The translations under genes and the position numbers were made by a program. Below, in pieces: positions 35,519 to 57,677 of a stretch of 64,000 nt of DNA. This DNA comes from Ostreococcus lucimarinus. Its lineage: Eukaryota. Numbering within the stretch: position 1 is the stretch's first letter; each line of letters opens with the position of its first letter. Below the pieces are notes generated by a model. That model had not been told where the DNA came from, did no database searches, and worked only from the letters and a program-made list of their open reading frames with translations. The DNA lies in the NCBI GenBank assembly GCA_000092065.1, contig CP000582.1; one strand, written 5' to 3'.

Positions 35519-35519
35519 T

Positions 35520-36279: not shown

Positions 36280-36445
36280 CCCCGAACGCGTTTTTTGAAC
36301 GCGCCGGGGTTTAGCGAAACGCGATGGCGCAACCGTCGCGTTCGCGCGCCCGCCAGTGCGCGGTGCGGCCGCGGCCGCCCGCGGGTGCGCGTGAGTAGTT
36401 CGAGGTGATTCCGACGCGTCGCGTCCGCACGTCGTCGCGCGCCGA

Positions 36446-40789: not shown

Positions 40790-40993
40790 ATGCGCAAAGT
40801 GTACAGCTCGCCGAACAAGTACTGTTGTCCCCCCCCATACTGCAGAAAAAAAGTATGGACTCTCATACATCCATGTGACTGACGCGCACGTTCTTACTCG
40901 TTCTTACTGAGTTCATCTTCGCAATGTATGGAGGCCGAAGAGTAATTATATTTTGTAGTTGAGCGCGGTTTTCTGTTCCATCAACGAATATCG

Positions 40994-42454
40994 CTAATCA
41001 AAAAAGCTATGGCTGATTGCGTCTAGTGCACTGATACGATCTTCTCGTTTGGGTGTGAGTAGCGCTGTCGCAAGCGCCCATCCCGCACCTTGTGCTGCGT
41101 CAAGTAAAGCCTCTCCCCTACAGCTTGAGCTCACGACCACACGATCATGTGTTCGCCACTCACTCAGATCATAACGATGGCGAGCAACTTCGTTCTTGAA
41201 TGTTAGTAAGCGTTCAGAATCACGGAGATACGGGAAACATAGCTGTAGCATGACGATACCCACGCTGAACATGTCGAATTTTCCAGGTTGATATATTTCC
41301 CAAAGTTCACTTAAATTGTCTGCAGTTGGTTGTGGTGCAGTCGAAGGAAGCAAATATATATCATCTGCAGAGCAGTATCTAGGGTCGGCTGGTCCTTCAC
41401 CGGGAACATAGTTTTTAGGAACTCCCAAGCACTGAGCAGCGGCACCCAGGTCGATGAACACAACTCCACCTTCTTCTGAGAAAACTATATTATCTGGCTT
41501 GATGTCTCGATGTACAATACCCACCGAATGTAAACTCTCCAAATTCTTCAGAATCGAACGCAGAACGAGTTTTATCATCTCACACTCAGTTGTACTTTGT
41601 GAAAGATTGTAAGCTTTGCGAGTAATTGTTTCGAGTGTTTCAGGTTTACGCAATGCTTCCCCAAGAGTAACCGAGCCACAGTATTCCCACATTAGCCAAA
41701 GGCCAGCTGGTAGCGTACCGTTGTAGATCTGACCTTCTTGACGCTGATCTATTTCGCAACAGCCGAAGAATCGAGCACACGATCCCTTCGCCAACTTGTG
41801 AACTGCCTCGTTCAGCTCAAGCTCTGCGTCTAAGAGCTCAGTCGCACCATACACATTTCTTTTTGCACATTTTAACACGACATCTCTTTCCTTCCACGTA
41901 CCACGGAACACAGTGCCAAAACTACCTTCACCAAGTGGTCCTGATTTTGATATTCGTATATCCTCGGGCTGCACGCCAACCGTTCGACGCAAGACAGCTG
42001 GACTATTCAACCTTTCATTTCGCTTCTTTTCCCAATAAGAGGCCATGTCTTCAGATTCTATCGAAAAAGTCTCAGGTCGTGAAAACGTGAGCTTGACTTG
42101 CACACTTTTTTGAGTAGATATGAAGGAGATGATGTCGTCGAAGTACACACCACTACAACCCGTCAAAGCGACGTTGTTTATTTCAATCGCATCAATAATA
42201 TCACCCACCGAAATAATACCACAATCAGCCGCGTGACTTCTTGGAGAGATGTCGGCAACATAAGCACCCTTATCGTCGTTCTGTGGCTGCAAAATTAAGC
42301 CCAAAGGCCTCTTCAGCGTCGTTTGAAATGACTCTTGTCTTGAGGAACCGCACGTTACACGTTTTCTACCACTGGACAACTTTTTGTTTTTCAACTGTAC
42401 TTTTTTCGATGTCGCCGCATTTACAATAGCGACTAGTGCTAAGCTGCGATTCAT
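40994..42454 (-). CDS. STN7/STN8/Stt7-family Ser/Thr protein kinase with N-terminal PDZ-like domain
   Basis: Kinase blocks IVHRDIKPDNIVF and FIDLGAAAQCLGVPKNYVPGEGPADPRYCSADDIYLLPSTAPQP ... FDMFSVGIVMLQLCFPYLRDSERLLTFKNEV..YDLSEWR are colinear with plant STN7 ([29 protein letters not shown]...). PDZ-like region: RPLGLILQP..GAYVADISPRSHAADCGIISVGDIIDAIE. Confidence 0.8.
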   Translation of the reverse strand: MNRSLALVAIVNAATSKKVQLKNKKLSSGRKRVTCGSSRQESFQTTLKRPLGLILQPQNDDKGAYVADISPRSHAADCGIISVGDIIDAIEINNVALTGCSGVYFDDIISFISTQKSVQVKLTFSRPETFSIESEDMASYWEKKRNERLNSPAVLRRTVGVQPEDIRISKSGPLGEGSFGTVFRGTWKERDVVLKCAKRNVYGATELLDAELELNEAVHKLAKGSCARFFGCCEIDQRQEGQIYNGTLPAGLWLMWEYCGSVTLGEALRKPETLETITRKAYNLSQSTTECEMIKLVLRSILKNLESLHSVGIVHRDIKPDNIVFSEEGGVVFIDLGAAAQCLGVPKNYVPGEGPADPRYCSADDIYLLPSTAPQPTADNLSELWEIYQPGKFDMFSVGIVMLQLCFPYLRDSERLLTFKNEVARHRYDLSEWRTHDRVVVSSSCRGEALLDAAQGAGWALATALLTPKREDRISALDAISHSFFD

Positions 42455-42646
42455 CTGCGACCGGGTGCACGCGTGGATCGAAAAGCGAGCAACTGTTCAG
42501 CTGTTTTTTGCATCTTACGTTGAGGAAGGGAGGTTTCGCGGGTTCGCTTAGTTTCTTAGTCGTCTTTTCCGTCTTGTCGAAGTGCTCGACGTTAAGTAAT
42601 TTAATATATTTGACATCAGAAATAAATATTTATTTCTTGTGATATA

Positions 42647-45600
42647 GTGACATATGACATCGTATTACAACGTTTTACCCCCACTTCGCAAGGACCGACC
42701 ACCCCATATCCATGTGCTATAAAAGCTAACTCAAAATGGAAGCTCGTACGTCTGAAACGCTTGGCGCTCGAGCGTTTCCGATGTCCGATGTTAACGCGCC
42801 ACAAACCGGAGAGCGTTCAGAATGGTACGCCCCGAAATGAATCACGAATGAGCAATCTAGACACACGCGCTATGTCGAACCCTTACTTTCAGGTCGGGCG
42901 ATGGGACTGCACGGACGAGCTCGAGGGGTGTCAATTCTCCGCGCCACATACGTCGGTGTCAGTTCCTAATTTCGAAGAGATTCAGACCCTTCACTACACC
43001 TGCGTGTATGAAGTGGCGATCACGTGTACACAGCGGCATGATATGCATAACGATGAGTTCGCGCATGTACTTAGTTCTGTCATCGAGCTCGCAAATCGCG
43101 TTGACCTGACACGACTTAGGCAACATCACTCCATAGATAACTTTGCCACACACGTTCTCACTTTTCGGTTCATTCTGGACCTGTTGAGGCAAACTTATCA
43201 GGAATACATCAAAGGAAGCATAGAAAATAATTCGTTTGAGCATGTCGAATTTACTTTCAACAATTGCATGGATGGTACGCACGGAATGGCAACATGCTTT
43301 AAACCGAATAAAAAGCATAGTCACCTTTGTTACATTTTGGATATTTCGCAGGCAGAAAGAAGTTGCAATGGTCGTACTGATGACACAAAATGCGTGCACG
43401 ACAAAATTACTATGAACGATCGCGTTCTTTCCGCGGCTAAGATCCCAGACAACGCAGTGAATAAACAATTCAGTGCTAGTATACTCAATGATGTGTATGG
43501 TTTCGATTCAAGTCTGTTCCATATTTCTCAGTCGGAAACCCTCTGCATGGACCCACAACAACGACTATTACTTCTTGCAGCAGCAGACTTATACCTGAGT
43601 AACACACGTGTTTGTCAACACGACGACTCCTTCTGCGTGCACGTCGGTGTATCGTGGAATGACTTTGAGGAAATTCGCAGAAAGTATAGTGCAGACTTTT
43701 TCTCCACTTATGATTCGACGGGAACATCAATAAGTGTCGCATCGGGTAGAATTGCGTATTATTTTGATTTCAAAGGGTGTGCTGTGACGATTGATACGGC
43801 TTGTTCATCATCTTTGGTTGCGTTGCATCAATCCATGTACGCAGCTGGCTCGCTCCGTGAATCAAGTGCACTTGTATGTGGCATCAACTTGATTTTGACA
43901 ACCACGATGACACATCGATTTCAGCTTGCTGGAATGATGTCTTCAGAGCATCGATGTATGACATTTGATGCACGCGCGGATGGCTACGTCCGGAGTGAGG
44001 CATGCAACATCGTACTCTTACACTTCAATGGCTTCACAAAAACTCATAGGAATGTACTGCGGCATGACGTTCATATGTCATGCGTCGTCAATCAAGATGG
44101 AACATCAACTGGACTTACGGCACCTAATGGAACAGCTCAGCGGAACCTGATGAATGAGTTACTATCGGACGTTTATAACCCTTCAAAACACGTTGGTGCT
44201 AAAATACATGCCCACGGCACAGGTACGCCTCTTGGGGATCCGATAGAGGTGTTTGCTATCAATTCTGCCCTCTCGTTTTCGTCACTGTGCAGGCTGTATG
44301 TGTCAGAAAAGTCGATGCGAGGGCACACAGAACCTGCTTCAGGTCTATGCAGCACCATACTTGCTTTCGTATCAGGTGCACAGTGCAAGCTACATGGTCA
44401 ACCACATTTACAGCAGTTAAACAATCATATACTAACATCGGTTGATGAAAGTATTTTTCAGCGTTCACTGCATTCCAGTTTTCCCTTAACTTCTATGGCG
44501 AGTGTCACCACAGTAAGCTCCTTCGCGTTCCAAGGGACGAACGCAATGGCTTCACTGACATATATCGACAAATGCAGTATTAGAGTGATTCGCAACACGT
44601 CAGGTCTGAGATCTTTGGTCAAGTTGGAGACTGAATCCCCTGTAAGACTCCCGTACACATTTTCTTGCCTTAGCATCGTCAATGGGAAAATGATACAGCT
44701 AACTTCAATGATTCACGACAAAACATTGAAGCGACTTTTGGATCATCGTGTAGCTGATATGCATCTTATGCCAGCCACAGGCCATCTTGAACTTGAAAGA
44801 GAGCTCACGAAGTGCGCTCTCGTAAGGAATGAACCATATCTTCTGACAAAGATCGCATTTATGCTGCCTCTCAAGCTTGATGAAAGCAATCAACTTATCA
44901 CAGAGATGAACACACATGGTCGCTTACGCGTTGGATGTGGCTCTGGCATATCCAATTACTGGTGTAGTACTGCACGACTTCAAATACCAGTAGGACGTGC
45001 CTGGTGCACGGACCGTACTTTTTATCTGACTAGTAAACTCGTTTCTCGGCGTTTCAAAGGTGCGACCGCAACAATAGCAGGGACGACGCCAATTCTCGAT
45101 TCACAAAATGTCGTGAATCCGTGTATCCAGGATGCGAGTCTACAATGCTCTGCATACGTCTTGAACACGTCAGCTTTCGCATCTGATACAACCTACATGG
45201 ACTGCGTATCGTTACTTAAGCTACCAACAACAATTCAAGACGTCATAGTTGTTAATCAGACAGGAAAAATACTTGTTAGATCGACGCATGTTGACATGTT
45301 GCAGAAGACGCAGCATGTGACTGAAAGTAATAACTCTGTCACAAGTAACTCTTCGAGTAACAATAAAACGCAGACATGGATACATCGTTTACTGTGTAAA
45401 GTATCAACCGTACGGATGAAAGCTGGCTTACGCACTCGCACATGCTTGGAACTCGCGAGATTGTTGTACCACGCGAGACAACAAAGAGTGCTGATATCAA
45501 ATATGCAAAACTTGCGTGAAGTAGGCAGTTTACATGCTCCAGAACTGATGCCCATCATGCGCGAAATGGGTCGTAAGTCAATGCAAGATATTAATTCGGC

Positions 45601-48600
45601 TAGTGCCTCTCTTTGCGCGGTTGCGCTGCTGCAGGCTTGCGGCGCTCGTGCGCGCGTTTCCGGCGCCCACGTGCGTGCAAACGACATCGTCCACGAGGAC
45701 GCTTCGGCCGCGCCCGCAGTCTGTGGATCGTGCGTGCGCGCCACCGTGCAATCTTCCGCGCAGGAACGCAGCGAGCCATTGGTGCTGAGTGTCGCGAGCG
45801 CCCCGCACACCGCGCCAGCCCGAGCGTTGCGATCGATCGCCGCCGGGGCGTCGATCGCCGGGGCGCTGTGCGTTGAGCGGCTGCTTCCGGCGTTCGGTCG
45901 CCGGACGCCCGCCGCGTCGCGCGACGGCGCGGCGACGACCACGGCGTCGCCGGCACCGAAAGTCTCGAGCGTGTTCGTGACTGGCGGTCTGGGCGCGTTG
46001 GGTCAGACTTCGGCGGCGTGGTACGCGCATCGAGGCGTTCGCCACGCCTACTTGACTGGTCGCCGCGGGCGCGGAGAGTCCCTTCTGCTGCGATGGTCGT
46101 CGCGCGGCGGTACCGACGTGAGCGCATTGCACGTGCTTCGCGTCGACGCGTGTGCGACCGACGAGGCGTCGTACGGCGGTGCGCGCGCGCACGCGCGCGT
46201 GCGCGCACACGGCGTGCTGCACGCGGGCGGCGTGCTACGCGACTCTTTGACTGCTCGCCAATCCGCGTCGGCCCATCGATACGTGTGGTCGTCCAAAGTA
46301 GTGTCCGCGCACGCATTGCTCCGCCAGTGCGTCGGCGTCGAGCGCGGCGCGCGTCACATCGCGCTGTTCTCGTCGGTGGCGGCGCTGCTGGGGAGTCCAG
46401 GGCAATGCAACTACAGCGCGGCCAACGCCGCGCTGGACGCGCGAGCCGCACACGAGTGGTGCCGCGGGTACGCGGTGCAATCCGTGCAGTGGGGCGCGTG
46501 GGACGGCGCGGGAATGGCGCTGACAAACGCGTCTGTACTCAGGAACGCGCGCACGACAGGCATCGGCGTGCTCGATCCGCAAGCCGGGCTCGGGGCCGTA
46601 CACGTCGCGCTTCAGGGCGCATCAGTGACGGGTCGCTGGCGGGCAATCCAAGGCGTCCTGGCCGTCGTCCCGTTCCAGTGGTCCGTGCTCGCGCGCGCGC
46701 AGCGCTCGCGCGCGCTGATTGCGGAGTACCGCGCGGAGTCGGCGCGGTCGAGCGCTCCAGTCGCCGTCCATCCGGGCGCCGAGGAAGACGCGGCGCGCGA
46801 TGTGTCAGATGAGAGCGTGCGGCAGATCGTGGCCTCCGCCGTGACGCGCGCGCTCGGCAGAGACGTGTCGGTGGACGCGTCGCTCATGGAAGAGGGCCTA
46901 GACTCGCTCGCGGCGGTCGAGCTCGGAGGGGCGTTACAAAAGGAAACGGGCGTGAACATGCCGGCCACGCTGGCATTTGACTACCCGACGATCACCGCGA
47001 TATCTGGGTACCTGAAGGGTGCGATGCTGGCGCGATCGCGTGCGCGCCAATCGAGCGGCGCGGCGTCCAGCGCCGCTCGCACGCGCGCCGCGAGCGGCGC
47101 GGTCGCGCATTCGCGCGACTCGATGCCAGGTATTGCATCCAACGCGCGCGAAATCTTGGGTCTTGCGCCCGTTGTTATGGCCATCAGACGGAGCGTGCGA
47201 CGACTCGACGCGGATGATCGAGAGCCAAAGCCTGCTCGACATGGCGGCTCGGCGTTGTTTTCATCGTTCGTGAGGTGCGTCATGGCAGAGCGAGCCTCTG
47301 AAGATCGCTTCGACACGCCATCGTTGGGCAGGCAGCCGAGCGCGACAGCGCGCGTGGTCTCCTTGACGAAAGCCAGAGATTTCACTACACAAGCTCTCGA
47401 CAGCATGCCGAAATGCAACGAGATTGAGCTGAGCGTCGTCAGCGCTGTGTCGAGTAAGGCATCAGGCGCGCACGATGCCGTGCGTGTGAACAACATGCGA
47501 CATGCGTGCGGCGAAGTGTGTGATCCACAAAGCTCAAAATCGCACGAGTTCGTCGCTCGGCGTCTTGTGCAGTTTGGGTACTTCATCGAGCGCAGCTTGT
47601 TTGACGGGGAGCAGTTCTCCGTAACGGCGCACGAGGCGCGGTTGATGGACCCGCAGCAGCGCGTGCTCCTGGAGAACGCGCTCGCCGCGACGAGTGCGAC
47701 GCCGCACAGCGCGCCGAAGCCAGCCACAGCCGTGTCCGTCGGCGCTTGGACGTCTCAGTACGCAGACATGTGCCGCGTGTACGAGCCAACGCCGGGGCCG
47801 TACTCTGGCGTTGCTTCCGCCTTGAGCGTGCTGTGCGGTCGCGTATCGTACACGTTTGGTATGCGTGGCCCGTCCGTGTGTGTCGACACCGCGTGCTCCT
47901 CCTCGCTCGTGGCCGCGCATGTTGCGAGCTCTCACTTGCGCGATGGATCGTGCGAGGACGCCCTCGTCGCCGGCGTGAGCGTGAACGTCGGCATCGGCAC
48001 CTTCCTCGTGGCCACCGCCGCGAGCATGCTATCGTTCGATGGTCGGTGCAAAACCTTGGATGCCAGCGCCGACGGTTACGCCAAGGGCGAGTGCTGCGTG
48101 GTCCTGCGCGTGTCGGTGGACGGGGCGAGCGCTGGAGCGCCCAAAGCGCCCGATCTTCCAAACGCCGAGTCTCCCTCTCTCGCTCTTCTCGAACAGACCG
48201 GTGTGAACCAGGATGGACGGTCGAGCTCGCTCACCGCACCAAACGGGCCGTCGCAGCAGGCACTCGTGGCCGATGCGCTTCTCCGCTCGGGGCTGCACGG
48301 CGACGCGCTCGGCAGGCTGGAGATGCACGGCACGGGTACTTCGCTGGGAGATCCGATAGAGGTCGGCGCCGCGCTTGAGGTTCTCGCGCCGCCGACGCGC
48401 GCGGACCGGGCGCCGTCCAGGGGCCCCGCGCTCACGCTTGAGGGCGTGAAGCCACGCGCTGGCCACTGCGAACCAGGGGCTGGCGCGGTTGGGTTGCTGT
48501 TTGCGATGGCAAACTTGACGGAGCGAGCCGTCGCGTCCCTCGTCCACCTGCGCCAGCTCAACCCTCACGTCGAGGCCGCGACGCGCCGAAACGCACCGTC

Positions 48601-51600
48601 GCCGCATGCGCGCGCGCCGGTGCTCGCGCGACAAGGCATGCCGCGACCGGATGACGGCGCGTCTGAGGCTGGAGCAGCGGACGCTGCTCGAGCGCGCGTG
48701 CGGCGATCCGGCGTGAGCGGCTTCGCGTTCCAGGGCACAAACGCGCACGCAATCATGGCCCGGGGACCCGGACAGGCGACTGCGCCCGGGTACACGGGAA
48801 GCACGCACACGGCGGCGCGTGCGTGGGAGCGTCAGCGCCACTGGTGCGCGCCAGAACGGCACTGCCTCATCGAGTCCGTGCGCGCTCTGCATCCTCGCGA
48901 GGGAGACTCGAGCGCGTTGGCGCGGTCGTGCGTGCGCCTGTGTCGGTCCGCGTCGCTCGCTGGCATGCTTGATCACGCCGTCGGGCTCCGGACGCTGCTA
49001 CCAGGCACAGCGCACGTCGAGATATGTCGAGCCATGGCGGGCGCGCTGGCAGACCAGCCGCTCGCCGACATCTCGCTGTCGCACGTATCTTTTGCAGCGC
49101 CCCTCGAGCTTCGAGCGCCGACGACCGACGTGCTGTGCGACGTCACGCCGCAAGGCGTGGCCCGCGTGGGCGTGCGCGTGTCGTCGTCCTCTGCCGCCGC
49201 GCCGTTCCTCGCGGGCGCGCTCAGCCGCAGAAGCGCCTCAAGAATTACTGCGTCTCCGGCGCACCTCTCGCGAGGACCGGCGATGCCCGCGCTGGACGTG
49301 CAGCCTTGTGTTCACGGCGCGAGCTGGCTGCGCTCGTCGCAGCGACGAGGCCCGGGCGCGGAGCACCGCGTGTACGGCGACATACGCGCGCGTCAGATGT
49401 CCACGCTGTCGGCTGCGGCGTATCACTCGCCGCCCGCAGTGCTCGATGCCGCGCTGCACGCGCTCAGCGCGTGCGCGCCGCCGCCGGGTAGCGATGCGAC
49501 AGAAGAGAGCCCGCACGTCCCGGCCACGATCGGCGGCGTCCGCACGCGAGGCGGGCACTCGGACATATACCGCGCCCGGTTCGCGCTCGCGACGGCTCCG
49601 CCTGAGCGCGGGGAGCGGAACGCGTCCACGCGCAGATCTCGTCACCACCTGTGGGACTGGTCGAGTCTTTCGGCGGCGCATCGAGGGTGCGTGGTGCACG
49701 CGCTGGAGTCTCGACGACTCGGTGGCGCCGCGGTCGTGCGCTCGCGAGCACAACAGCGCTCGAGGGCACCGCCGCCGCGTCGCGCGGCCGCGCCGCGTGT
49801 GCTTTATGGAGTCGGGCAACAGCGCGCGTGCGGCGCGGCGGATGGCCAGGGCGCGCGTCGACGCTCAACCCTCAACTCGCAGTGCTTTGTGGACGACGCG
49901 TCGCACCGCCGCGAGCTGATGGAGACCCACGCGTCACCATCGATCGCGCAAGGCAGCACGCGAAGCAGCACGCGCGCCTCTCTTTGCGCGGTTGCGCTGC
50001 TGCAGGCTTGCGGCGCTCGTGCGCGCGTTTCCGGCGCCCACGTGCGTGCAAACGACATCGTCCACGAGGACGCTTCGGCCGCGCCCGCAGTCTGTGGATC
50101 GTGCGTGCGCGCCACCGTGCAGTCTTCCGCGCAGGAACGCAGCGAGCCATTGGTGCTGAGTGTCGCGAGCGCCCCGCACACCGCGCCAGCCCGAGCGTTG
50201 CGATCGATCGCCGCCGGGGCGTCGATCGCCGGGGCGCTGTGCGTTGAGCGTCTGCTTCCGACGTTCGGTCGCCGGACGCCCGCCGCGTCGCGCGACGGCG
50301 CGGCGACGACCACGGCGTCGCCGGCACCGAAAGTCTCGAGCGTGTTCGTGACTGGCGGTCTGGGCGCGTTGGGTCAGACTTCGGCGGCGTGGTACGCGCA
50401 TCGAGGCGTTCGCCACGCCTACTTGACTGGTCGCCGCGGGCGCGGAGAGTCCCTTCTGCTGCGATGGTCGTCGCGCGGCGGTACCGACGTGAGCGCATTG
50501 CACGTGCTTCGCGTCGACGCGTGTGCGACCGACGAGGCGTCGTACGGCGGTGCGCGCGCGCACGCGCGCGTGCGCGCACACGGCGTGCTGCACGCGGGCG
50601 GCGTGCTACGCGACTCTTTGACTGCTCGCCAATCCGCGTCGGCCCATCGATACGTGTGGTCGTCCAAAGTAGTGTCCGCGCACGCATTGCTCCGCCAGTG
50701 CGTCGGCGTCGAGCGCGGCGCGCGTCACATCGCGCTGTTCTCGTCGGTGGCGGCGCTGCTGGGGAGTCCAGGGCAATGCAACTACAGCGCGGCCAACGCC
50801 GCGCTGGACGCGCGAGCCGCACACGAGTGGTGCCGCGGGTACGCGGTGCAATCCGTGCAGTGGGGCGCGTGGGACGGCGCGGGAATGGCGCTGACAAACG
50901 CGTCTGTACTCAGGAACGCGCGCACGACAGGCATCGGCGTGCTCGATCCGCAAGCCGGGCTCGGGGCCGTACACGTCGCGCTTCAGGGCGCATCAGTGAC
51001 GGGTCGCTGGCGGGCAATCCAAGGCGTCCTGGCCGTCGTCCCGTTCCAGTGGTCCGTGCTCGCGCGCGCGCAGCGCTCGCGCGCGCTGATTGCGGAGTAC
51101 CGCGCGGAGTCGGCGCGGTCGAGCGCTCCAGTCGCCGTCCATCCGGGCGCCGAGGAAGACGCGGCGCGCGATGTGTCAGATGAGAGCGTGCGGCAGATCG
51201 TGGCCTCCGCCGTGACGCGCGCGCTCGGCAGAGACGTGTCGGTGGACGCGTCGCTCATGGAAGAGGGCCTAGACTCGCTCGCGGCGGTCGAGCTCGGAGG
51301 GGCGTTACAAAAGGAAACGGGCGTGAACATGCCGGCCACGCTGGCATTTGACTACCCGACGATCACCGCGATATCTGGGTACCTGAAGGGTGCGATGCTG
51401 GCGCGATCGCGTGCGCGCCAATCGAGCGGCGCGGCGTCCAGCGCCGCTCGCACGCGCGCCGCGAGCGGCGCGGTCGCGCATTCGCGACGTACAACCATTA
51501 CTCAGCTCCCTCGTCTACGTCTATCATACGTTCCGCATGAAGTCAGCCGACGAACGACTCTTGGCATTAGCGGTCAATATTCTCACGAGCTTAGACACTT

Positions 51601-54600
51601 TAGCTCTGCGGGACCTTCGACCAGTAACTTTGAGGGAGTCCTCTTTGTTCGCATTCATAACTCCACCAAGCCCTTACCCGTGCATCCATATTTCATTGGC
51701 AACTTTTTGCGTTGTGACGAACTCGAGTTCGGCTTGTTTGGCGCACCGCACAGCGAATGGACTACTCTGGACGCGCGGCAGATTCTCTTGATTGAGAGTG
51801 TACACACTATCCAGCTGAACAACAGTTCAGACGTTTCATTGCGCACTCTAGAGACGACGGCTGTTCTTGTTGGAGCACAAGCGGTAGATTCAACTGACGA
51901 GCATAGCGTTGAGATACAGTACAACGCCTACTCTGGCGTTGCTTCCGCCTTGAGCGTGCTGTGCGGTCGCGTATCGTACACGTTTGGTATGCGTGGCCCG
52001 TCCGTGTGTGTCGACACCGCGTGCTCCTCCTCGCTCGTGGCCGCGCATGTTGCGAGCTCTCACTTGCGCGATGGATCGTGCGAGGACGCCCTCGTCGCCG
52101 GCGTGAGCGTGAACGTCGGCATCGGCACCTTCCTCGTGGCCACCGCCGCGAGCATGCTATCGTTCGATGGTCGGTGCAAAACCTTGGATGCCAGCGCCGA
52201 CGGTTACGCCAAGGGCGAGTGCTGCGTGGTCCTGCGCGTGTCGGTGGACGGGGCGAGCGCTGGAGCGCCCAAAGCGCCCGATCTTCCAAACGCCGAGTCT
52301 CCCTCTCTCGCTCTTCTCGAACAGACCGGTGTGAACCAGGATGGACGGTCGAGCTCGCTCACCGCACCAAACGGGCCGTCGCAGCAGGCACTCGTGGCCG
52401 ATGCGCTTCTCCGCTCGGGGCTGCACGGCGACGCGCTCGGCAGGCTGGAGATGCACGGCACGGGTACTTCGCTGGGAGATCCGATAGAGGTCGGCGCCGC
52501 GCTTGAGGTTCTCGCGCCGCCGACGCGCGCGGACCGGGCGCCGTCCAGGGGCCCCGCGCTCACGCTTGAGGGCGTGAAGCCACGCGCTGGCCACTGCGAA
52601 CCAGGGGCTGGCGCGGTTGGGTTGCTGTTTGCGATGGCAAACTTGACGGAGCGAGCCGTCGCGTCCCTCGTCCACCTGCGCCAGCTCAACCCTCACGTCG
52701 AGGCCGCGACGCGCCGAAACGCACCGTCGCCGCATGCGCGCGCGCCGGTGCTCGCGCGACAAGGCATGCCGCGACCGGATGACGGCGCGTCTGAGGCTGG
52801 AGCAGCGGACGCTGCTCGAGCGCGCGTGCGGCGATCCGGCGTGAGCGGCTTCGCGTTCCAGGGCACAAACGCGCACGCAATCATGGCCCGGGGACCCGGA
52901 CAGGCGACTGCGCCCGGGTACACGGGAAGCACGCACACGGCGGCGCGTGCGTGGGAGCGTCAGCGCCACTGGTGCGCGCCAGAACGGCACTGCCTCATCG
53001 AGTCCGTGCGCGCTCTTCATCCTCGCGAGGGAGACTCGAGCGCGTTGGCGCGGTCGTGCGTGCGCCTGTGTCGGTCCGCGTCGCTCGCTGGCATGCTTGA
53101 TCACGCCATCGGGCTCCGGACGCTACTACCAGGCACAGCGCACGTCGAGATATGTCGAGCCATGGCGGGCGCGCTGGCAGACCAGCCGCTCGCCGACATC
53201 TCGCTGTCGCACGTATCTTTTGCAGCGCCCCTCGAGCTTCGAGCGCCGACGACCGACGTGCTGTGCGACGTCACGCCGCAAGGCGTGGCCCGCGTGGGCG
53301 TGCGCGTGTCGTCGTCCTCTGCCGCCGCGCCGTTCCTCGCGGGCGCGCTCAGCCGCAGAAGCGCCTCAAGAATTACTGCGTCTCCGGCGCACCTCTCGCG
53401 AGGACCGGCGATGCCCGCGCTGGACGTGCAGCCTTGTGTTCACGGCGCCATCAGACGGAGCGTGCGACGACTCGACGCGGATGATCGAGAGCCAAAGCCT
53501 GCTCGACATGGCGGCTCGGCGTTGTTTTCATCGTTCGTGAGGTGCGTCATGGCAGAGCGAGCCTCTGAAGATCGCTTCGACACGCCATCGTTGGGCAGGC
53601 AGCCGAGCGCGACAGCGCGCGTGGTCTCCTTGACGAAAGCCAGAGATTTCACTACACAAGCTCTCGACAGCATGCCGAAATGCAACGAGATTGAGCTGAG
53701 CGTCGTCAGCGCTGTGTCGAGTAAGGCATCAGGCGCGCACGATGCTGTGCGTGTGAACAACATGCGACATGCGTGCGGCGAAGTGTGTGATCCACAAAGC
53801 TCAAAATCGCACGAGTTCGTCGCTCGGCATCTTGTGCAGTTTGGGTACTTCATCGAGCGCAGCTTGTTTGACGGGGAGCAGTTCTCCGTAACGGCGCACG
53901 AGGCGCGGTTGATGGACCCGCAGCAGCGCGTGCTCCTGGAGAACGCGCTCGCCGCGACGAGCGCGACGCCGCACAGCGCGCCGAAGCCAGCCACAGCCGT
54001 GTCCGTCGGCGCTTGGACGTCTCAGTACGCAGACATGTGCCGCGTGTACGAGCCAACGCCGGGGCCGTACTCTGGCGTTGCTTCCGCCTTGAGCGTGCTG
54101 TGCGGTCGCGTATCGTACACGTTTGGTATGCGTGGCCCGTCCGTGTGTGTCGACACCGCGTGCTCCTCCTCGCTCGTGGCCGCGCATGTTGCGAGCTCTC
54201 ACTTGCGCGATGGATCGTGCGAGGACGCCCTCGTCGCCGGCGTGAGCGTGAACGTCGGCATCGGCACCTTCCTCGTGGCCACCGCCGCGAGCATGCTATC
54301 GTTCGATGGTCGGTGCAAAACCTTGGATGCCAGCGCCGACGGTTACGCCAAGGGCGAGTGCTGCGTGGTCCTGCGCGTGTCGGTGGACGGGGCGAGCGCT
54401 GGAGCGCCCAAAGCGCCCGATCTTCCAAACGCCGAGTCTCCCTCTCTCGCTCTTCTCGAACAGACCGGTGTGAACCAGGATGGACGGTCGAGCTCGCTCA
54501 CCGCACCAAACGGGCCGTCGCAGCAGGCACTCGTGGCCGATGCGCTTCTCCGCTCGGGGCTGCACGGCGACGCGCTCGGCAGGCTGGAGATGCACGGCAC

Positions 54601-56623
54601 AGGTACTTCGCTGGGAGATCCGATAGAGGTCGGCGCCGCGCTTGAGGTTCTCGCGCCGCCGACGCGCGCGGACCGGGCGCCGTCCAGGCCCCCCGCGCTC
54701 ACGCTTGAGGGCGTGAAGCCACGCGCTGGCCACTGCGAACCAGGGGCTGGCGCGGTTGGGTTGCTGTTTGCGATGGCAAACTTGACGGAGCGAGCCGTCG
54801 CGTCCCTCGTCCACCTGCGCCAGCTCAACCCTCACGTCGAGGCCGCGACGCGCCGAAACGCACCGTCGCCGCATGCGCGCGCGCCGGTGCTCGCGCGACA
54901 AGGCATGCCGCGACCGGATGACGGCGCGTCTGAGGCTGGAGCAGCGGACGCTGCTCGAGCGCGCGTGCGGCGATCCGGCGTGAGCGGCTTCGCGTTCCAG
55001 GGCACAAACGCGCACGCAATCATGGCCCGGGGACCCGGACAGGCGACTGCGCCCGGGTACACGGGAAGCACGCACACGGCGGCGCGTGCGTGGGAGCGTC
55101 AGCGCCACTGGTGCGCGCCAGAACGGCACTGCCTCATCGAGTCCGTGCGCGCTCTTCATCCTCGCGAGGGAGACTCGAGCGCGTTGGCGCGGTCGTGCGT
55201 GCGCCTGTGTCGGTCCGCGTCGCTCGCTGGCATGCTTGATCACGCCATCGGGCTCCGGACGCTACTACCAGGCACAGCGCACGTCGAGATATGTCGAGCC
55301 ATGGCGGGCGCGCTGGCAGACCAGCCGCTCGCCGACATCTCGCTGTCGCACGTATCTTTTGCAGCGCCCCTCGAGCTTCGAGCGCCGACGACCGACGTGC
55401 TGTGCGACGTCACGCCGCAAGGCGTGGCCCGCGTGGGCGTGCGCGTGTCGTCGTCCTCTGCCGCCGCGCCGTTCCTCGCGGGCGCGCTCAGCCGCAGAAG
55501 CGCCTCAAGAATTACTGCGTCTCCGGCGCACCTCTCGCGAGGACCGGCGATGCCCGCGCTGGACGTGCAGCCTTGTGTTCACGGCGCGAGCTGGCTGCGC
55601 TCGTCGCAGCGACGAGGCCCGGGCGCGGAGCACCGCGTGTACGGCGACATACGCGCGCGTCAGATGTCCACGCTGTCGGCTGCGGCGTATCACTCGCCGC
55701 CCGCAGTGCTCGATGCCGCGCTGCACGCGCTCAGCGCGTGCGCGCCGCCGCCGGGTAGCGATGCGACAGAAGAGAGCCCGCACGTCCCGGCCACGATCGG
55801 CGGCGTCCGCACGCGAGGCGGGCACTCGGACATGTACCGCGCCCGGTTCGCGCTCGCGACGGCTCCGCCTGAGCGCGGGGAGCGGAACGCGTCCACGCGC
55901 AGATCTCGTCACCACCTGTGGGACTGGTCGAGTCTTTCGGCGGCGCATCGAGGGTGCGTGGTGCACGCGCTGGAGTCTCGACGACTCGGTGGCCTCACGA
56001 CGAATTCATTTTATCATAGCTTTACGTCTACGCAGGCATATAAGTTGGCTCATATTCCACGGCCAGACATCCTATCGCAGTCTTTCACTTCAATGAAGAC
56101 TATAAATGCTGTCGACAAAGCTAGCAGCACATTTACAGAACGCAGTAGTGATGCGATGGAAATTGTTAACGCCGTGCAACGCGAGATTTTGGAAATTTTA
56201 TCAACATTAACGACCAGTCCTGTAAGTTTAGATGATACACTTGCGAGCCACGGATTGGACTCACTGGGCATTGCATATTTTTTTATTCAAGTTGGCAAAC
56301 GGTTCAATGTTGAAGTGACTGTTGACAGTCTTGGCACGAACACCACAGTCAGTAGTATAGTGCATCAGATATCACAGATGCTTAGTGCAAGGGTGATTTT
56401 CCTACACACCAAGGACCTGGTGCGCGAGCGAAAAGCCGACAGCTCCTCAAGAAGAGGAAGGAGCACTGCGATCACATCGATGGTGTCTGCATACCGTCGA
56501 CACTTGCAGTCAACTGAATTCGAGCCCAAAGCCTGTTTTGCAAGAGGCGTACTTGCTTGCGCAATATTTACTATATTTATCATTGCGTACGGATATCACG
56601 CACACAGATTCGACATGTTTTAG
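42647..56623 (+). CDS. Giant modular type I polyketide synthase, apparently AT-less: (N-term unknown)-KS-DH-KR-ACP-KS-DH-KR-ACP-KS-DH(truncated)-KS-DH-ACP-TM helix; 4658 aa, single ORF
   Basis: 4x KS (DTACSSSL Cys, HGTGT, G-H). 4x DH-like (LLDHRVADMHLMP / MLDHA[VI]GLRTLLP, plus NPCIQDASLQ / AVLDAALHA). 2x KR (VFVTGGLGALGQ ... GQCNYSAANAALDA). 3x ACP (EEGLDSLAAVEL x2, SHGLDSLGIAYF). I could find no GHSxG/AFHS acyltransferase signature, and the KS-to-DH linkers are only ~28 aa. The first in-frame Met is 42647; a later Met start is possible. Confidence 0.9.
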   Translation: MTYDIVLQRFTPTSQGPTTPYPCAIKANSKWKLVRLKRLALERFRCPMLTRHKPESVQNGTPRNESRMSNLDTRAMSNPYFQVGRWDCTDELEGCQFSAPHTSVSVPNFEEIQTLHYTCVYEVAITCTQRHDMHNDEFAHVLSSVIELANRVDLTRLRQHHSIDNFATHVLTFRFILDLLRQTYQEYIKGSIENNSFEHVEFTFNNCMDGTHGMATCFKPNKKHSHLCYILDISQAERSCNGRTDDTKCVHDKITMNDRVLSAAKIPDNAVNKQFSASILNDVYGFDSSLFHISQSETLCMDPQQRLLLLAAADLYLSNTRVCQHDDSFCVHVGVSWNDFEEIRRKYSADFFSTYDSTGTSISVASGRIAYYFDFKGCAVTIDTACSSSLVALHQSMYAAGSLRESSALVCGINLILTTTMTHRFQLAGMMSSEHRCMTFDARADGYVRSEACNIVLLHFNGFTKTHRNVLRHDVHMSCVVNQDGTSTGLTAPNGTAQRNLMNELLSDVYNPSKHVGAKIHAHGTGTPLGDPIEVFAINSALSFSSLCRLYVSEKSMRGHTEPASGLCSTILAFVSGAQCKLHGQPHLQQLNNHILTSVDESIFQRSLHSSFPLTSMASVTTVSSFAFQGTNAMASLTYIDKCSIRVIRNTSGLRSLVKLETESPVRLPYTFSCLSIVNGKMIQLTSMIHDKTLKRLLDHRVADMHLMPATGHLELERELTKCALVRNEPYLLTKIAFMLPLKLDESNQLITEMNTHGRLRVGCGSGISNYWCSTARLQIPVGRAWCTDRTFYLTSKLVSRRFKGATATIAGTTPILDSQNVVNPCIQDASLQCSAYVLNTSAFASDTTYMDCVSLLKLPTTIQDVIVVNQTGKILVRSTHVDMLQKTQHVTESNNSVTSNSSSNNKTQTWIHRLLCKVSTVRMKAGLRTRTCLELARLLYHARQQRVLISNMQNLREVGSLHAPELMPIMREMGRKSMQDINSASASLCAVALLQACGARARVSGAHVRANDIVHEDASAAPAVCGSCVRATVQSSAQERSEPLVLSVASAPHTAPARALRSIAAGASIAGALCVERLLPAFGRRTPAASRDGAATTTASPAPKVSSVFVTGGLGALGQTSAAWYAHRGVRHAYLTGRRGRGESLLLRWSSRGGTDVSALHVLRVDACATDEASYGGARAHARVRAHGVLHAGGVLRDSLTARQSASAHRYVWSSKVVSAHALLRQCVGVERGARHIALFSSVAALLGSPGQCNYSAANAALDARAAHEWCRGYAVQSVQWGAWDGAGMALTNASVLRNARTTGIGVLDPQAGLGAVHVALQGASVTGRWRAIQGVLAVVPFQWSVLARAQRSRALIAEYRAESARSSAPVAVHPGAEEDAARDVSDESVRQIVASAVTRALGRDVSVDASLMEEGLDSLAAVELGGALQKETGVNMPATLAFDYPTITAISGYLKGAMLARSRARQSSGAASSAARTRAASGAVAHSRDSMPGIASNAREILGLAPVVMAIRRSVRRLDADDREPKPARHGGSALFSSFVRCVMAERASEDRFDTPSLGRQPSATARVVSLTKARDFTTQALDSMPKCNEIELSVVSAVSSKASGAHDAVRVNNMRHACGEVCDPQSSKSHEFVARRLVQFGYFIERSLFDGEQFSVTAHEARLMDPQQRVLLENALAATSATPHSAPKPATAVSVGAWTSQYADMCRVYEPTPGPYSGVASALSVLCGRVSYTFGMRGPSVCVDTACSSSLVAAHVASSHLRDGSCEDALVAGVSVNVGIGTFLVATAASMLSFDGRCKTLDASADGYAKGECCVVLRVSVDGASAGAPKAPDLPNAESPSLALLEQTGVNQDGRSSSLTAPNGPSQQALVADALLRSGLHGDALGRLEMHGTGTSLGDPIEVGAALEVLAPPTRADRAPSRGPALTLEGVKPRAGHCEPGAGAVGLLFAMANLTERAVASLVHLRQLNPHVEAATRRNAPSPHARAPVLARQGMPRPDDGASEAGAADAARARVRRSGVSGFAFQGTNAHAIMARGPGQATAPGYTGSTHTAARAWERQRHWCAPERHCLIESVRALHPREGDSSALARSCVRLCRSASLAGMLDHAVGLRTLLPGTAHVEICRAMAGALADQPLADISLSHVSFAAPLELRAPTTDVLCDVTPQGVARVGVRVSSSSAAAPFLAGALSRRSASRITASPAHLSRGPAMPALDVQPCVHGASWLRSSQRRGPGAEHRVYGDIRARQMSTLSAAAYHSPPAVLDAALHALSACAPPPGSDATEESPHVPATIGGVRTRGGHSDIYRARFALATAPPERGERNASTRRSRHHLWDWSSLSAAHRGCVVHALESRRLGGAAVVRSRAQQRSRAPPPRRAAAPRVLYGVGQQRACGAADGQGARRRSTLNSQCFVDDASHRRELMETHASPSIAQGSTRSSTRASLCAVALLQACGARARVSGAHVRANDIVHEDASAAPAVCGSCVRATVQSSAQERSEPLVLSVASAPHTAPARALRSIAAGASIAGALCVERLLPTFGRRTPAASRDGAATTTASPAPKVSSVFVTGGLGALGQTSAAWYAHRGVRHAYLTGRRGRGESLLLRWSSRGGTDVSALHVLRVDACATDEASYGGARAHARVRAHGVLHAGGVLRDSLTARQSASAHRYVWSSKVVSAHALLRQCVGVERGARHIALFSSVAALLGSPGQCNYSAANAALDARAAHEWCRGYAVQSVQWGAWDGAGMALTNASVLRNARTTGIGVLDPQAGLGAVHVALQGASVTGRWRAIQGVLAVVPFQWSVLARAQRSRALIAEYRAESARSSAPVAVHPGAEEDAARDVSDESVRQIVASAVTRALGRDVSVDASLMEEGLDSLAAVELGGALQKETGVNMPATLAFDYPTITAISGYLKGAMLARSRARQSSGAASSAARTRAASGAVAHSRRTTITQLPRLRLSYVPHEVSRRTTLGISGQYSHELRHFSSAGPSTSNFEGVLFVRIHNSTKPLPVHPYFIGNFLRCDELEFGLFGAPHSEWTTLDARQILLIESVHTIQLNNSSDVSLRTLETTAVLVGAQAVDSTDEHSVEIQYNAYSGVASALSVLCGRVSYTFGMRGPSVCVDTACSSSLVAAHVASSHLRDGSCEDALVAGVSVNVGIGTFLVATAASMLSFDGRCKTLDASADGYAKGECCVVLRVSVDGASAGAPKAPDLPNAESPSLALLEQTGVNQDGRSSSLTAPNGPSQQALVADALLRSGLHGDALGRLEMHGTGTSLGDPIEVGAALEVLAPPTRADRAPSRGPALTLEGVKPRAGHCEPGAGAVGLLFAMANLTERAVASLVHLRQLNPHVEAATRRNAPSPHARAPVLARQGMPRPDDGASEAGAADAARARVRRSGVSGFAFQGTNAHAIMARGPGQATAPGYTGSTHTAARAWERQRHWCAPERHCLIESVRALHPREGDSSALARSCVRLCRSASLAGMLDHAIGLRTLLPGTAHVEICRAMAGALADQPLADISLSHVSFAAPLELRAPTTDVLCDVTPQGVARVGVRVSSSSAAAPFLAGALSRRSASRITASPAHLSRGPAMPALDVQPCVHGAIRRSVRRLDADDREPKPARHGGSALFSSFVRCVMAERASEDRFDTPSLGRQPSATARVVSLTKARDFTTQALDSMPKCNEIELSVVSAVSSKASGAHDAVRVNNMRHACGEVCDPQSSKSHEFVARHLVQFGYFIERSLFDGEQFSVTAHEARLMDPQQRVLLENALAATSATPHSAPKPATAVSVGAWTSQYADMCRVYEPTPGPYSGVASALSVLCGRVSYTFGMRGPSVCVDTACSSSLVAAHVASSHLRDGSCEDALVAGVSVNVGIGTFLVATAASMLSFDGRCKTLDASADGYAKGECCVVLRVSVDGASAGAPKAPDLPNAESPSLALLEQTGVNQDGRSSSLTAPNGPSQQALVADALLRSGLHGDALGRLEMHGTGTSLGDPIEVGAALEVLAPPTRADRAPSRPPALTLEGVKPRAGHCEPGAGAVGLLFAMANLTERAVASLVHLRQLNPHVEAATRRNAPSPHARAPVLARQGMPRPDDGASEAGAADAARARVRRSGVSGFAFQGTNAHAIMARGPGQATAPGYTGSTHTAARAWERQRHWCAPERHCLIESVRALHPREGDSSALARSCVRLCRSASLAGMLDHAIGLRTLLPGTAHVEICRAMAGALADQPLADISLSHVSFAAPLELRAPTTDVLCDVTPQGVARVGVRVSSSSAAAPFLAGALSRRSASRITASPAHLSRGPAMPALDVQPCVHGASWLRSSQRRGPGAEHRVYGDIRARQMSTLSAAAYHSPPAVLDAALHALSACAPPPGSDATEESPHVPATIGGVRTRGGHSDMYRARFALATAPPERGERNASTRRSRHHLWDWSSLSAAHRGCVVHALESRRLGGLTTNSFYHSFTSTQAYKLAHIPRPDILSQSFTSMKTINAVDKASSTFTERSSDAMEIVNAVQREILEILSTLTTSPVSLDDTLASHGLDSLGIAYFFIQVGKRFNVEVTVDSLGTNTTVSSIVHQISQMLSARVIFLHTKDLVRERKADSSSRRGRSTAITSMVSAYRRHLQSTEFEPKACFARGVLACAIFTIFIIAYGYHAHRFDMF
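43480..44560 (+). other. PKS KS1 domain (AT-moderate composition)
   Basis: FDSSLFHISQSETLCMDPQQRLLL; TIDTACSSSLVALHQS (Cys codon near 43801); HAHGTGTPLGDPIE; SMRGHTEPASG; SSFAFQGTNAMASL. Confidence 0.85.
44600..45290 (+). other. PKS DH1 domain (AT-moderate composition)
   Basis: LLDHRVADMHLMPATGHLE (the HxxxGxxxxP variant with D) and NPCIQDASLQ (the DxxxQ motif). Confidence 0.65.
45960..46560 (+). other. PKS KR1 catalytic subdomain (GC-rich, repeat A copy 1)
   Basis: VFVTGGLGALGQTSAAWYAHRG; FSSVAALLGSPGQCNYSAANAALDA. Confidence 0.8.
46817..47013 (+). other. PKS ACP1
   Basis: VRQIVASAVTRALG..SLMEEGLDSLAAVELGGALQ..LAFDYPTITAISGYL. Confidence 0.85.
47560..48757 (+). other. PKS KS2 (GC-rich, repeat B copy 1)
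   Basis: FDGEQFSVTAHEARLMDPQQRVLLE; VCVDTACSSSLVAAHVA; EMHGTGTSLGDPIE; PRAGHCEPGAG; SGFAFQGTNAHAIM. Confidence 0.85.
48840..49726 (+). other. PKS DH2 (complete)
   Basis: MLDHAVGLRTLLPGTAHVE and YHSPPAVLDAALHALS. Confidence 0.65.
49976..51486 (+). repeat. PKS intragenic repeat A, copy 2
   Basis: See copy 1. Confidence 0.92.
50331..51384 (+). other. PKS KR2 + ACP2 (repeat A copy 2, offset +4371 from KR1/ACP1)
   Basis: Translation is identical to KR1/ACP1 except for LLPAFG->LLPTFG upstream. Confidence 0.85.
51684..52885 (+). other. PKS KS3, chimeric: divergent AT-moderate N-terminal part (to 51928) fused in-frame to GC-rich repeat B from 51929
   Basis: HPYFIGNFLRCDELEFGLFGAPHSEWTTLDARQILLIESV aligns with FGYFIERSLFDGEQFSVTAHEARLMDPQQRVLLENA of KS2/KS4. 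From Y|SGVASALS onward the sequence is identical to KS2/KS4. Confidence 0.8.
51929..53448 (+). repeat. PKS intragenic repeat B, partial copy 2 (1520 bp, from mid-KS to mid-DH)
   Basis: See copy 1. Both ends fall inside domains. Confidence 0.92.
52968..53448 (+). other. PKS DH3, truncated after the first half at the repeat junction (lacks the LDAALH half)
   Basis: MLDHAIGLRTLLP is present. At ..QPCVHGA|IRRSVRRLD the sequence jumps directly into the inter-module linker of repeat B copy 3. Confidence 0.7.
53447..55993 (+). repeat. PKS intragenic repeat B, copy 3
   Basis: See copy 1. It abuts partial copy 2 with a 2-bp microhomology (gc). Confidence 0.92.
53827..55993 (+). other. PKS KS4 + DH4 (repeat B copy 3, offset +6267 from KS2/DH2)
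   Basis: The motifs are the same as in KS2/DH2. Substitutions seen: ARRLVQ->ARHLVQ, SRGPAL->SRPPAL, DHAVG->DHAIG, HSDIY->HSDMY. Confidence 0.85.
56154..56385 (+). other. PKS terminal ACP3 (AT-moderate composition)
   Basis: AMEIVNAVQREILEIL..LDDTLASHGLDSLGIAYFFIQVGKRF..IVHQISQML. Confidence 0.8.
56531..56600 (+). other. C-terminal hydrophobic helix of the PKS (putative membrane anchor)
   Basis: ACFARGVLACAIFTIFIIAYGY is followed by HAHRFDMF and the stop. No thioesterase or reductase release domain is present. Confidence 0.5.
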
Positions 56624-56798: not shown

Positions 56799-57677
56799 AT
56801 GCCGAGGCGCACATCATTAGCCAACGGCAGCTCGCTGTACGACGGGTTGCGATTTAAGTCGAGCGGGTTCAAGCGTTCGGGCAGGAAAGTGAACTTTTAC
56901 ACGTGTAGTACGATCGACGACTCGGACAGAAACGCGTCCTCGACGGGGAGATGCACGTTCGAGGCGGAGATCCGGCACAGAGCCGCGACGGACGAGTACT
57001 TCATCACCAAGTACGTCGGCCATTCGTTCGGTTGCACCGCGCTCTCGCCCCACATCGACGGGGAAACGCGAGCCGAGCTCGTCGATGACGTGCAAATGCA
57101 AGCCATATCCCTGCAACGAGGTCGCGTCGCTGTACAATCGTGTATCGATTACGTGTTCCGGCGCTACTCGTACGTCGTCGACGAAGCGCCGGCTGCGTCG
57201 TTACTTCAGTGCGTGCGGCGACGAAGTTCGGTGGCCACTCGCAGAGAGGCTCTTAAGCGCTTCGCTCAGACGAAAGTGCGATCGAAATTACAGGGCGAAC
57301 TCATGACCTGCATCGCGCACTCGCGCCAAGTCATAACCTCGTTGAGCCTGACCGAACGCCCGACGTCACGCGACATTCGAAAGTATTATCATGTGTTCGG
57401 ATTGCTGCACACGCACTGCAGTCGTCTTCCGGAGTTCGACTCGCTCGCAACCGTATGGATGGCCGCAGATACGACTAGCAGCGCCGCGCTCATTCATGCG
57501 CTCGAGCTCGGCATCAAAAAATTCGACAACGCACTGCGCACCGTTCGCCCCGCGACTGCCTCACAAACTGAAGCCTTGCACAACGCTCACGGCCATCTTC
57601 CTCCTTACGATCTCAGTGAAGCCGAGGCGTTGACGGCTCTTCGTAGTATAGCGCGTTCTGCCCAAACACGTTCGTAG
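56799..57677 (+). CDS. GC-rich intronless orphan protein with N-terminal WRKY/FLYWCH/FAR1-like zinc-finger signature (possibly transposon-derived)
   Basis: YDGLRFKSSGFKRSGRKVNFYTCS...GRCTFEAEIRH...YFITKYVGHSFGC fits the beta-strand C..C...H.(H/C) pattern of WRKY-GCM1 superfamily DNA-binding domains. The rest of the protein has no recognisable family. An imperfect hairpin lies at 57690-57714, just after the stop. Confidence 0.4.
   Translation: MPRRTSLANGSSLYDGLRFKSSGFKRSGRKVNFYTCSTIDDSDRNASSTGRCTFEAEIRHRAATDEYFITKYVGHSFGCTALSPHIDGETRAELVDDVQMQAISLQRGRVAVQSCIDYVFRRYSYVVDEAPAASLLQCVRRRSSVATRREALKRFAQTKVRSKLQGELMTCIAHSRQVITSLSLTERPTSRDIRKYYHVFGLLHTHCSRLPEFDSLATVWMAADTTSSAALIHALELGIKKFDNALRTVRPATASQTEALHNAHGHLPPYDLSEAEALTALRSIARSAQTRS

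Follow-up and report, generated by a model that had tools for sequence, protein, structure and literature searches.

How can a single eukaryotic gene come to contain several long and nearly identical copies of its own coding sequence? This question is raised by a 64,000-nucleotide stretch of Ostreococcus lucimarinus DNA (assembly GCA_000092065.1, contig CP000582.1; the whole stretch is referred to as the window), in which one open reading frame (ORF) of 4658 codons, at 42647–56623 on the plus strand, spans all of the repeat copies. The gene, which is ∼14 kb long and intron-less, encodes a modular trans-AT type I polyketide synthase (PKS). Pfam matches comprise four KS, two KR and three ACP domains together with four DH N-terminal halves, the catalytic motifs DTACSSS, HGTGT and GLDSL are readable in the translation, and no Acyl_transf_1 match was found at E ≤ 0.01 across the 4658 amino acids. 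In the supplement of Shelest et al. 2015 (PMC4661987), it is catalogued among the trans-AT PKSs as OluPKS1 (JGI 119561), and its architecture is given as KS-KR-ACP-KS-KR-ACP-KS2-ACP. The window has a GC content of ∼45%, compared to 60% for the O. lucimarinus genome, and therefore lies inside the low-GC big outlier chromosome region BOC1; the locus is on chromosome 2 of strain CCE9901, where BOC1 is the candidate mating-type locus. In this work, we argue that the copies probably reflect a tandem module cassette undergoing concerted evolution, and not one frozen duplication.

The repeats were mapped by self-blastn and a repeat search of 42–58 kb. Repeat A (1511 bp) is present in two copies at an offset of 4371 with 3 mismatches (99.80% identity), while Repeat B (2547 bp) is present in two copies at an offset of 6267 with 10 mismatches (99.61% identity). 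The central 1520 bp of Repeat B, termed B-core, occurs three times (47801–49320, 51929–53448 and 54068–55587; offsets 4128 and 2139), and its third copy, at 51929–53448, has 3 mismatched bases against each of the full B copies. No other copies of intermediate identity were detected by self-blastn in 42–58 kb. The parts of the gene are listed below.

42788–56623, plus strand: OluPKS1 coding sequence, from the ORF, Pfam and JGI protein 119561 in the PMC4661987 supplement
42788–45604, plus strand: low-GC N-terminal module, with KS1 at ∼43500–44560 and a DH N-terminal half at ∼44693–44902
45605–47115, plus strand: Repeat A copy 1, with KR at ∼45968–46504 and ACP at ∼46829–47014
47116–47179, plus strand: j, the 64-bp A/B junction, part of the 4371-bp tandem unit
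47180–49726, plus strand: Repeat B copy 1, with a linker, KS at ∼47552–48550 and DH at ∼48965–49585
49727–49975, plus strand: j', a GC-rich stretch of 249 bp that occurs once in the reference, closes the tandem unit
49976–51486, plus strand: Repeat A copy 2 (KR-ACP)
51487–51928, plus strand: u, low-GC and in frame, a diverged ACP-KS linker and KS N-terminus
51929–53448, plus strand: third, partial copy of B-core, with KS from ∼profile position 140 to its end and the DH N-terminal half
53447–55993, plus strand: Repeat B copy 2, joined to B-core at its 5' end by a non-homologous junction with 2–4 bp of microhomology
55994–56623, plus strand: low-GC tail, with ACP at ∼56186–56365 and a hydrophobic C-terminus

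The start of the coding sequence, 42788, is the ATG chosen by gene calls on environmental contigs, while the mechanical ORF begins at 42647. A sequence-only reading of this DNA had described the repeats before our analysis, and self-comparison reproduced its coordinates, offsets and identities for A, B and B-core to the base. Repeats of 1.5–2.5 kb at >99.6% identity cannot have arisen by chance. Thirteen bases differ among the copies and result in 5 amino-acid changes (A/T, R/H, G/P, V/I and I/M), all of which had been listed in that reading, and in 7 synonymous differences besides. Its claim that every junction keeps the reading frame also holds: the offsets 4371, 6267, 4128 and 2139 are all divisible by 3 and one ORF runs throughout. 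The unique junctions at 47116–47179, 49727–49975, 51487–51928 and 53447 lie where it had placed them.

Together, A, j (64 bp), B and j' (249 bp) add up to exactly 4371 bp, and the base structure is therefore a tandem repeat of one module cassette that contains KR-ACP, a linker and KS-DH. Preceding the cassettes is the low-GC N-terminal module, in which KS1 has both DTACSSS and HGTGT. The low-GC sequence 5' of the first A copy showed no significant colinearity with j' 5' of the second (alignment score z ∼1). Two of the junctions fall within domains, as had been claimed. The junction at 51929 lies within KS, at about position 140 of the 252 in the Pfam profile, and the junction at 53447 falls between the DH N-terminal half and the remaining DH. 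The latter couples mid-DH to a linker, yielding a KS and half DH without an ACP; accordingly, the third B-core copy is not followed by an ACP. Other frames of the island (45600–56100) contain many ORFs of 150–366 amino acids that are repeated along with the copies, for example 48029–48976 on the minus strand and 48819–49919 on the plus strand. We rejected these as genes, as they are an expected by-product of 70% GC.

Between the second A copy and the third B-core copy, u stands in the place of j and the 5' part of B. It keeps frame across 147 codons, and the KS profile match runs unbroken from u into B-core (segment residues 77–249, profile positions 69–244). The closest named relative of the cassette is an O. 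tauri protein, XP_022840662.1 (ostta02g00180), which is found among the BOC1 proteins of that species. In this protein, KR-ACP is followed by a diverged linker and KS N-terminus and these by a KS core, as in the reference. It is 73% identical to the window in KR-ACP and 75% identical in the KS core at the amino-acid level, and u is homologous to its residues 419–512 (28% over 99 amino acids, E = 1e-6) at the same position. Additionally, the O. tauri protein is the same compositional mosaic as OluPKS1, as judged from amino acids only: the GARP/FYMINK fractions of the three segments are 0.39/0.09, 0.21/0.22 and 0.36/0.09 in O. tauri and 0.43/0.08, 0.22/0.18 and 0.42/0.08 in the window.

An order of KR-ACP, u-type segment and KS core that is common to both species indicates that this order is ancestral and that u is a relic and not an artefact. 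The same comparison points to 51929 as an old boundary where module-type homology ends. Thus, while the sequence-only reading was correct in placing this junction within a domain, it does not appear to be a fresh breakpoint, as O. tauri shares it. The shared order, and with it the apparent ancestry of u and age of the mid-KS boundary, is a new point. An orthologue search with the low-GC N-terminal module yielded only 37% matches. We also observed that the extreme N-terminus of the PKS (∼42878–42955, NPYFQVGRWDCTDELEGCQFSAPHT) resembles part of u (51683–51757, HPYFIGNFLRCDELEFGLFGAPHS), with 48% identity over 25 amino acids (E = 0.001 in a single comparison), and may represent a second relic of a u-type KS N-terminus.

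We compared the reference structure to environmental contigs found via the flanking kinase gene, the downstream ORF and a metagenome scan, all of which are 99.9% identical to the window. These are short-read assemblies from which copies cannot be counted. A de Bruijn assembler is expected to break a contig just inside the edge of a repeat. Indeed, four contigs end 119–140 nt inside A, at 45723–45744, and five begin 93–127 nt before the end of B, at 55867–55901, while further contigs cross both of the junctions between low-GC and GC-rich DNA. The nine breaks at the outer edges, taken with the junction-spanning contigs, therefore demonstrate that the island and its outer boundaries are real and common to wild populations, species-wide. 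One further candidate (L027) was discarded as an unrelated organism of 45% GC without the repeats.

Inside these boundaries, the environmental assemblies depart from the reference. Five scaffolds have the order N-A-j-B-j'-A-j-B-tail, with N the N-terminal module; a gene call was recorded for four of the five, consisting of an in-frame ORF of 3979 amino acids in three and of 3770 amino acids in the fourth (L010). One contig is collapsed to N-A-j-B-tail, and a 360-kb contig (JGI 3300047157) has the two-unit form with two out-of-frame deletions. Neither u nor the junction from B-core to B was present in any of the environmental assemblies read, nor was the partial third B-core copy. A 26-mer from u had no match in the metagenome collection, a dual IUPAC pattern covering u and a control in the same gene returned three control sites and zero u sites in environmental data, and the u peptide had no match among 5.8 billion protein clusters. 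By assembly, the copy number is one, two, or two plus a partial copy (the reference), which bears out the earlier caution that copy number is uncertain. As the shortest route through the assembly-graph loop, the two-unit form gives a natural copy number of at least two. The difference between reference and wild forms in module copy number and order is a new point.

Two observations on these contigs are of separate interest. The flanks of the JGI 3300047157 contig (L011 / L001) are 99.97–100% identical to the window, and its deletions of ∼767 bp (window 44837–45604) and ∼795 bp (55443–56237) are clean and lack microhomology. Each causes a frameshift, gene calling splits the product into 688 + 2630 amino acids, and the contig represents either a pseudogenised allele or a mis-assembly. 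Additionally, in a comparison of the window to six environmental contigs, the island had 17 variant sites in 5.9 kb (45605–51486) and the low-GC flank upstream of it 4 sites in 5.1 kb (40476–45604), an apparent ∼3.7-fold excess in density. This may result from short-read mixing of paralogous variants or from an elevated mutation rate in GC/CpG-rich DNA.

What process would produce this structure? We infer that the copies of the 4371-bp cassette are kept alike by recurrent intragenic recombination, which would proceed by unequal exchange, by gene conversion and, occasionally, by template switching at microhomologies. Homogenisation would halt where homology ends, that is, at the diverged first module, at u and at the terminal ACP. 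The reference strain would then retain the ancestral order of KR-ACP, u and KS core plus an extra partial copy, while wild populations would carry a derived A-j-B-j'-A-j-B arrangement in which u has been overwritten. Judged by the O. tauri order, the wild two-unit form appears to be derived from the reference-type order, and its origin would involve replacement of u (439–442 bp) by j and the 5' part of B, for which a single conversion with flanking homology could suffice.

Three types of evidence make ongoing concerted evolution a better account than one recent duplication. First, copies within the species are 99.6–99.8% identical at the nucleotide level, whereas the same segments are only ∼74% identical between species at the amino-acid level (28% for u), a contrast that is the textbook mark of concerted evolution. 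Second, near-identical modules recur across genera. In a chromosome-scale assembly of Bathycoccus prasinos, a PKS contains at least four tandem copies of a ∼4.2-kb unit at 99.3–99.8% identity; a Bathycoccus-like contig has PKS module repeats at 99.6–99.9% identity, and another prasinophyte contig has a 4168-bp unit at 99.66% identity. Near-identical modules have also been published for PKSs of O. lucimarinus, O. tauri, Micromonas and Chlorella, including modules of 89–100% amino-acid identity in OluPKS3, OtaPKS1 and MicPKS2 (PMC4661987). Third, the structure is polymorphic: at 99.9% flank identity, the two-unit, collapsed and deleted forms of the short-read assemblies all depart from the reference structure. 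The published cases and the newly found prasinophyte ones also show that such structures are already known, and are common, in these algae, and the description of such identity as rarely seen in a eukaryote fails.

The Bathycoccus PKS repeats, which lie in the outlier region (B. prasinos OZ117185.1, 12389–28853, L025; and L026), have features of their own. The reading frame is split into overlapping ORFs, and numerous 1-bp gaps distinguish the copies; the gaps could stem from long-read errors or from pseudogenisation.

Several observations limit the case for recurrent exchange. B-core shares 3 variants with the second B copy and 3 bases with the first, and since three copies always fit a tree, exchange is not directly demonstrable from the paralogous variants. 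Spatial clustering of variants among the three B-core copies was not significant. Additionally, the two-unit form in short-read data may be no more than the minimal way through a loop in the assembly graph.

The sequence-only reading had left the choice between recent duplication and gene conversion open. Of these, recurrent exchange is the better explanation, and one very recent set of segmental duplications without continuing exchange, in which the copies are alike because they are young, is unlikely. Such an event would account for the low divergence between copies (0.2–0.4%) and its fit to a tree, and the 53447 junction shows simple microhomology, as one duplication event would typically leave. 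However, coincident events would be needed to account for the near-identical repeats of Bathycoccus, the other prasinophyte contig and the published Ostreococcus and Micromonas PKSs. The segments of the cassette are also old, with 73–75% amino-acid identity to an orthologue from O. tauri that keeps their order, and the structure differs between the reference and the wild contigs.

We consider it very unlikely that the repeats, or the u and B-core arrangement, were mis-built in the reference. It is true that the assemblies disagree on copy number and that none reproduces u followed by B-core. However, the outer boundaries, j and j' are reproduced in many independent assemblies, and u, at 442 bp, is short enough for single Sanger reads over both of its junctions. 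The reference was reportedly Sanger-sequenced and finished (Palenik 2007). Its structure is the minimal path that uses all of the reference junctions, and an artefact would have to account for a u that stays in frame over 147 codons, continues the KS profile and occupies a KR-ACP, u-type linker, KS core order conserved in O. tauri.

A new feature, which the sequence-only reading did not contain, is that the repeats form a GC-rich island within the gene, with steps at the repeat boundaries. Where the first A copy begins, GC climbs from 0.44 to 0.71; it drops back at the end of the second B copy, while u is low again (GC 0.50). Maximum-likelihood change-points in GC fall at 45615, 51480, 51925 and 56003, each within 10 bp of a repeat boundary. 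The GC contents at codon positions 1, 2 and 3 (GC1/2/3) are 0.72/0.61/0.80 in A and 0.70/0.59/0.76 in B, compared to 0.49/0.42/0.44 in the N-terminal module. GC3 is 0.49 in u, 0.45 in the tail and 0.41–0.48 in the other BOC1 genes of the window. Thus, GC3 along the gene is a step function, 0.76–0.80 within the island and 0.44–0.50 outside, and the shift is strongest at synonymous sites. Between the low-GC KS1-DH1 and the KS-DH of the island, amino-acid identity is 28% and DNA similarity is undetectable.

Why is the cassette GC-rich? The cause is again something we infer, and with less confidence than the exchange itself: GC-biased repair during exchange, or better purging of AT-biased mutations, would keep the cassette GC-rich. 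GC-biased conversion in particular is a tentative proposal, which we hold to be possible but short of probable. Consistent with it, a GC3 of ∼0.78, like that of the standard genome, occurs within a gene of GC3 0.44, the rise is confined to the exchanging tract with change-points at the repeat boundaries, and the repeated parts are conserved while the unique parts of the same gene have decayed. Other data count against the bias. Polarised by the environmental consensus, the differences between copies comprise 9 GC-to-AT and 2 AT-to-GC changes, an excess that mutation bias alone predicts; the other island variants comprise 8 GC-to-AT and 4 AT-to-GC, although these are unpolarised and the numbers are small. 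Moreover, the equally homogenised Bathycoccus modules have an outlier-like GC3, 0.33–0.35 in the repeats versus 0.31 in the unique parts. The Bathycoccus repeats are 9 GC points higher overall, with the excess confined to codon positions 1 and 2; we therefore rejected them as a replicate of the island, as the codon-position analysis shows no GC3 effect.

Alternatively, the cassette could be a recent immigrant from a standard-chromosome PKS or another genome that took the place of resident low-GC modules, was subsequently duplicated and has a GC3 that has yet to decay. This explanation is rather unlikely but has several points in its favor: a GC3 of 0.78 resembles that of the standard genome, genes are known from the literature to move into the mating-type region, standard-chromosome PKS genes of O. 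tauri are likewise known to be gained and lost, a young insertion of 5.2 kb close by exceeds the background in GC as well, and the Bathycoccus repeats show no GC3 gain. On the other hand, no donor is present among the matches listed, which reach ∼1640 amino acids at most and place the giant OluPKS2/3 outside the comparison. The nearest non-self relatives among those matches are 62–67% identical in protein and ∼70% in DNA. The closest named relative is itself an outlier-region PKS, from O. tauri, that matches the cassette in domain order and in its mosaic of GARP-rich and FYMINK-rich segments, which suggests that the cassette was already resident when the species diverged.

Bacterial contamination or horizontal gene transfer was rejected as a source of the 70% GC block. 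Its best matches are prasinophyte PKSs (62–67% amino-acid identity), with actinobacterial matches at only 33–38%, and independent contigs cross both compositional junctions. Lastly, the repeats are almost certainly not GRINS, the skewed repeats reported in some eukaryotes as well (PMC8256042): duplicated regions >500 bp and >80% identical do lie inside one PKS and their composition is recoded versus homologous modules, but whereas GRINS are defined by correlated skews with mean absolute GC and TA values >0.15 (150-nt windows), we found a GC skew of 0.05–0.08 and a TA skew of 0.14–0.16, equal to the shuffle null, without positive correlation (r = −0.1 to −0.5), and rejected the assignment.

Recurrent exchange may also have a further consequence. 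In a non-recombining region whose GC has decayed, exchanging modules would be held at standard or higher GC3 and evolve slowly if ectopic conversion, GC-biased and protective, substitutes locally for meiotic recombination. We regard this as doubtful, though it fits the contrast between a cassette that is 73–75% identical to O. tauri in amino acids and non-exchanging parts with a GC3 of 0.44 and 28–40% identity. If true, OluPKS1 would be the counterpart, within a single green-algal gene, of the palindromes on Y chromosomes, and a natural experiment separating GC-biased gene conversion from regional mutation bias.

The surroundings of the gene are those of the outlier region, a location that the sequence-only reading had overlooked. 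Stretches of the BOC1 type have been described as 9–17 GC points under the genome with trapped housekeeping genes, and Pfam assigns the PKS neighbours in the window to arginyl-tRNA ligase, separase, HDAC, SNF2 and STN7 kinase; arginyl-tRNA ligase has also been described for the corresponding O. tauri region. No free-standing AT gene was found among the 10 neighbours scanned against Pfam, a scan that covers the window only. At the end of the PKS, a hydrophobic stretch (GVLACAIFTIFIIAYGY, 56500–56620) follows the last ACP and may be a membrane anchor; a thioesterase or other release domain is absent after that ACP. Just 3' of the PKS, an ORF at 56799–57677 (292 amino acids) forms another GC-richer islet (GC 0.58, GC3 0.68). 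It has no Pfam match, and its protein recurs exactly on 13 of the 13 contigs read for it, 10 of which were retrieved as loci.

Upstream, a 5169-bp segment (35430–40598) of ∼53% GC is also richer than background. It holds a DDE_Tnp_4 transposase ORF (36446–38239) and an XPG-N/XPG-I nuclease-like ORF (38231–40354), with no obvious terminal inverted repeats at 35430–40598. Five environmental contigs have ∼61 bp of unrelated DNA in its place, and the segment is therefore polymorphic and probably a recent insertion in the reference strain.

Module duplication and homogenisation are a route of modular PKS diversification, and OluPKS1 offers a compact eukaryotic case in which ancestral (reference) and more homogenised (wild) states coexist within one species. 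The parts most worth attention are the GC step and the polymorphism between reference and wild forms. Repeat edges coincide with a 34-point jump in synonymous GC in a low-GC region thought to be non-recombining, which makes the cause of composition testable, the candidates being GC-biased conversion, recent immigration and regional mutation. A practical consequence is that PKS module counts from short reads are unreliable in Mamiellales genomes and metagenome-assembled genomes (MAGs).

Palindromes and amplicons of the Y chromosome undergo arm-to-arm gene conversion, which is GC-biased and thought to protect genes from decay. By analogy, OluPKS1 would resemble them in having near-identical intrachromosomal repeats in a non-recombining, sex-linked region. 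However, the Y palindromes are inverted and of intergenic scale, whereas the OluPKS1 repeats are direct and intragenic, with a GC bias that is only putative. Bacterial assembly-line PKSs, including those with GRINS, likewise have long, highly identical intra-PKS stretches that cross domain boundaries, and these have been attributed to gene conversion (Nivina et al. 2021, PMC8256042). In contrast, OluPKS1 is eukaryotic and its tract is distinct in G+C content, not in skew.

For the BOC1 region of Mamiellales, Valiadi et al. (bioRxiv 10.1101/2025.04.21.649811) likewise find PKS genes, with giant loci, to be a conserved but structurally variable feature, with large structural variation and module numbers that differ between strains and even cultures of one strain; they also report standard-like CpG methylation and MNase coverage over the O. 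lucimarinus PKS stretches in BOC1. The GC content of these stretches is no part of that discussion, nor is gene conversion. Additionally, OluPKS1 is a small PKS, and the evidence presented here comes from metagenomic contigs and not long reads. Shelest et al. 2015 (PMC4661987) covered the same species, gene family and OluPKS1 architecture, but at the protein level, and did not discuss the OluPKS1 repeats, their nucleotide identity, nesting, GC content or polymorphism. With the OluPKS1 repeats, a process already known gains a new and well-resolved example, in a gene that had been catalogued before.

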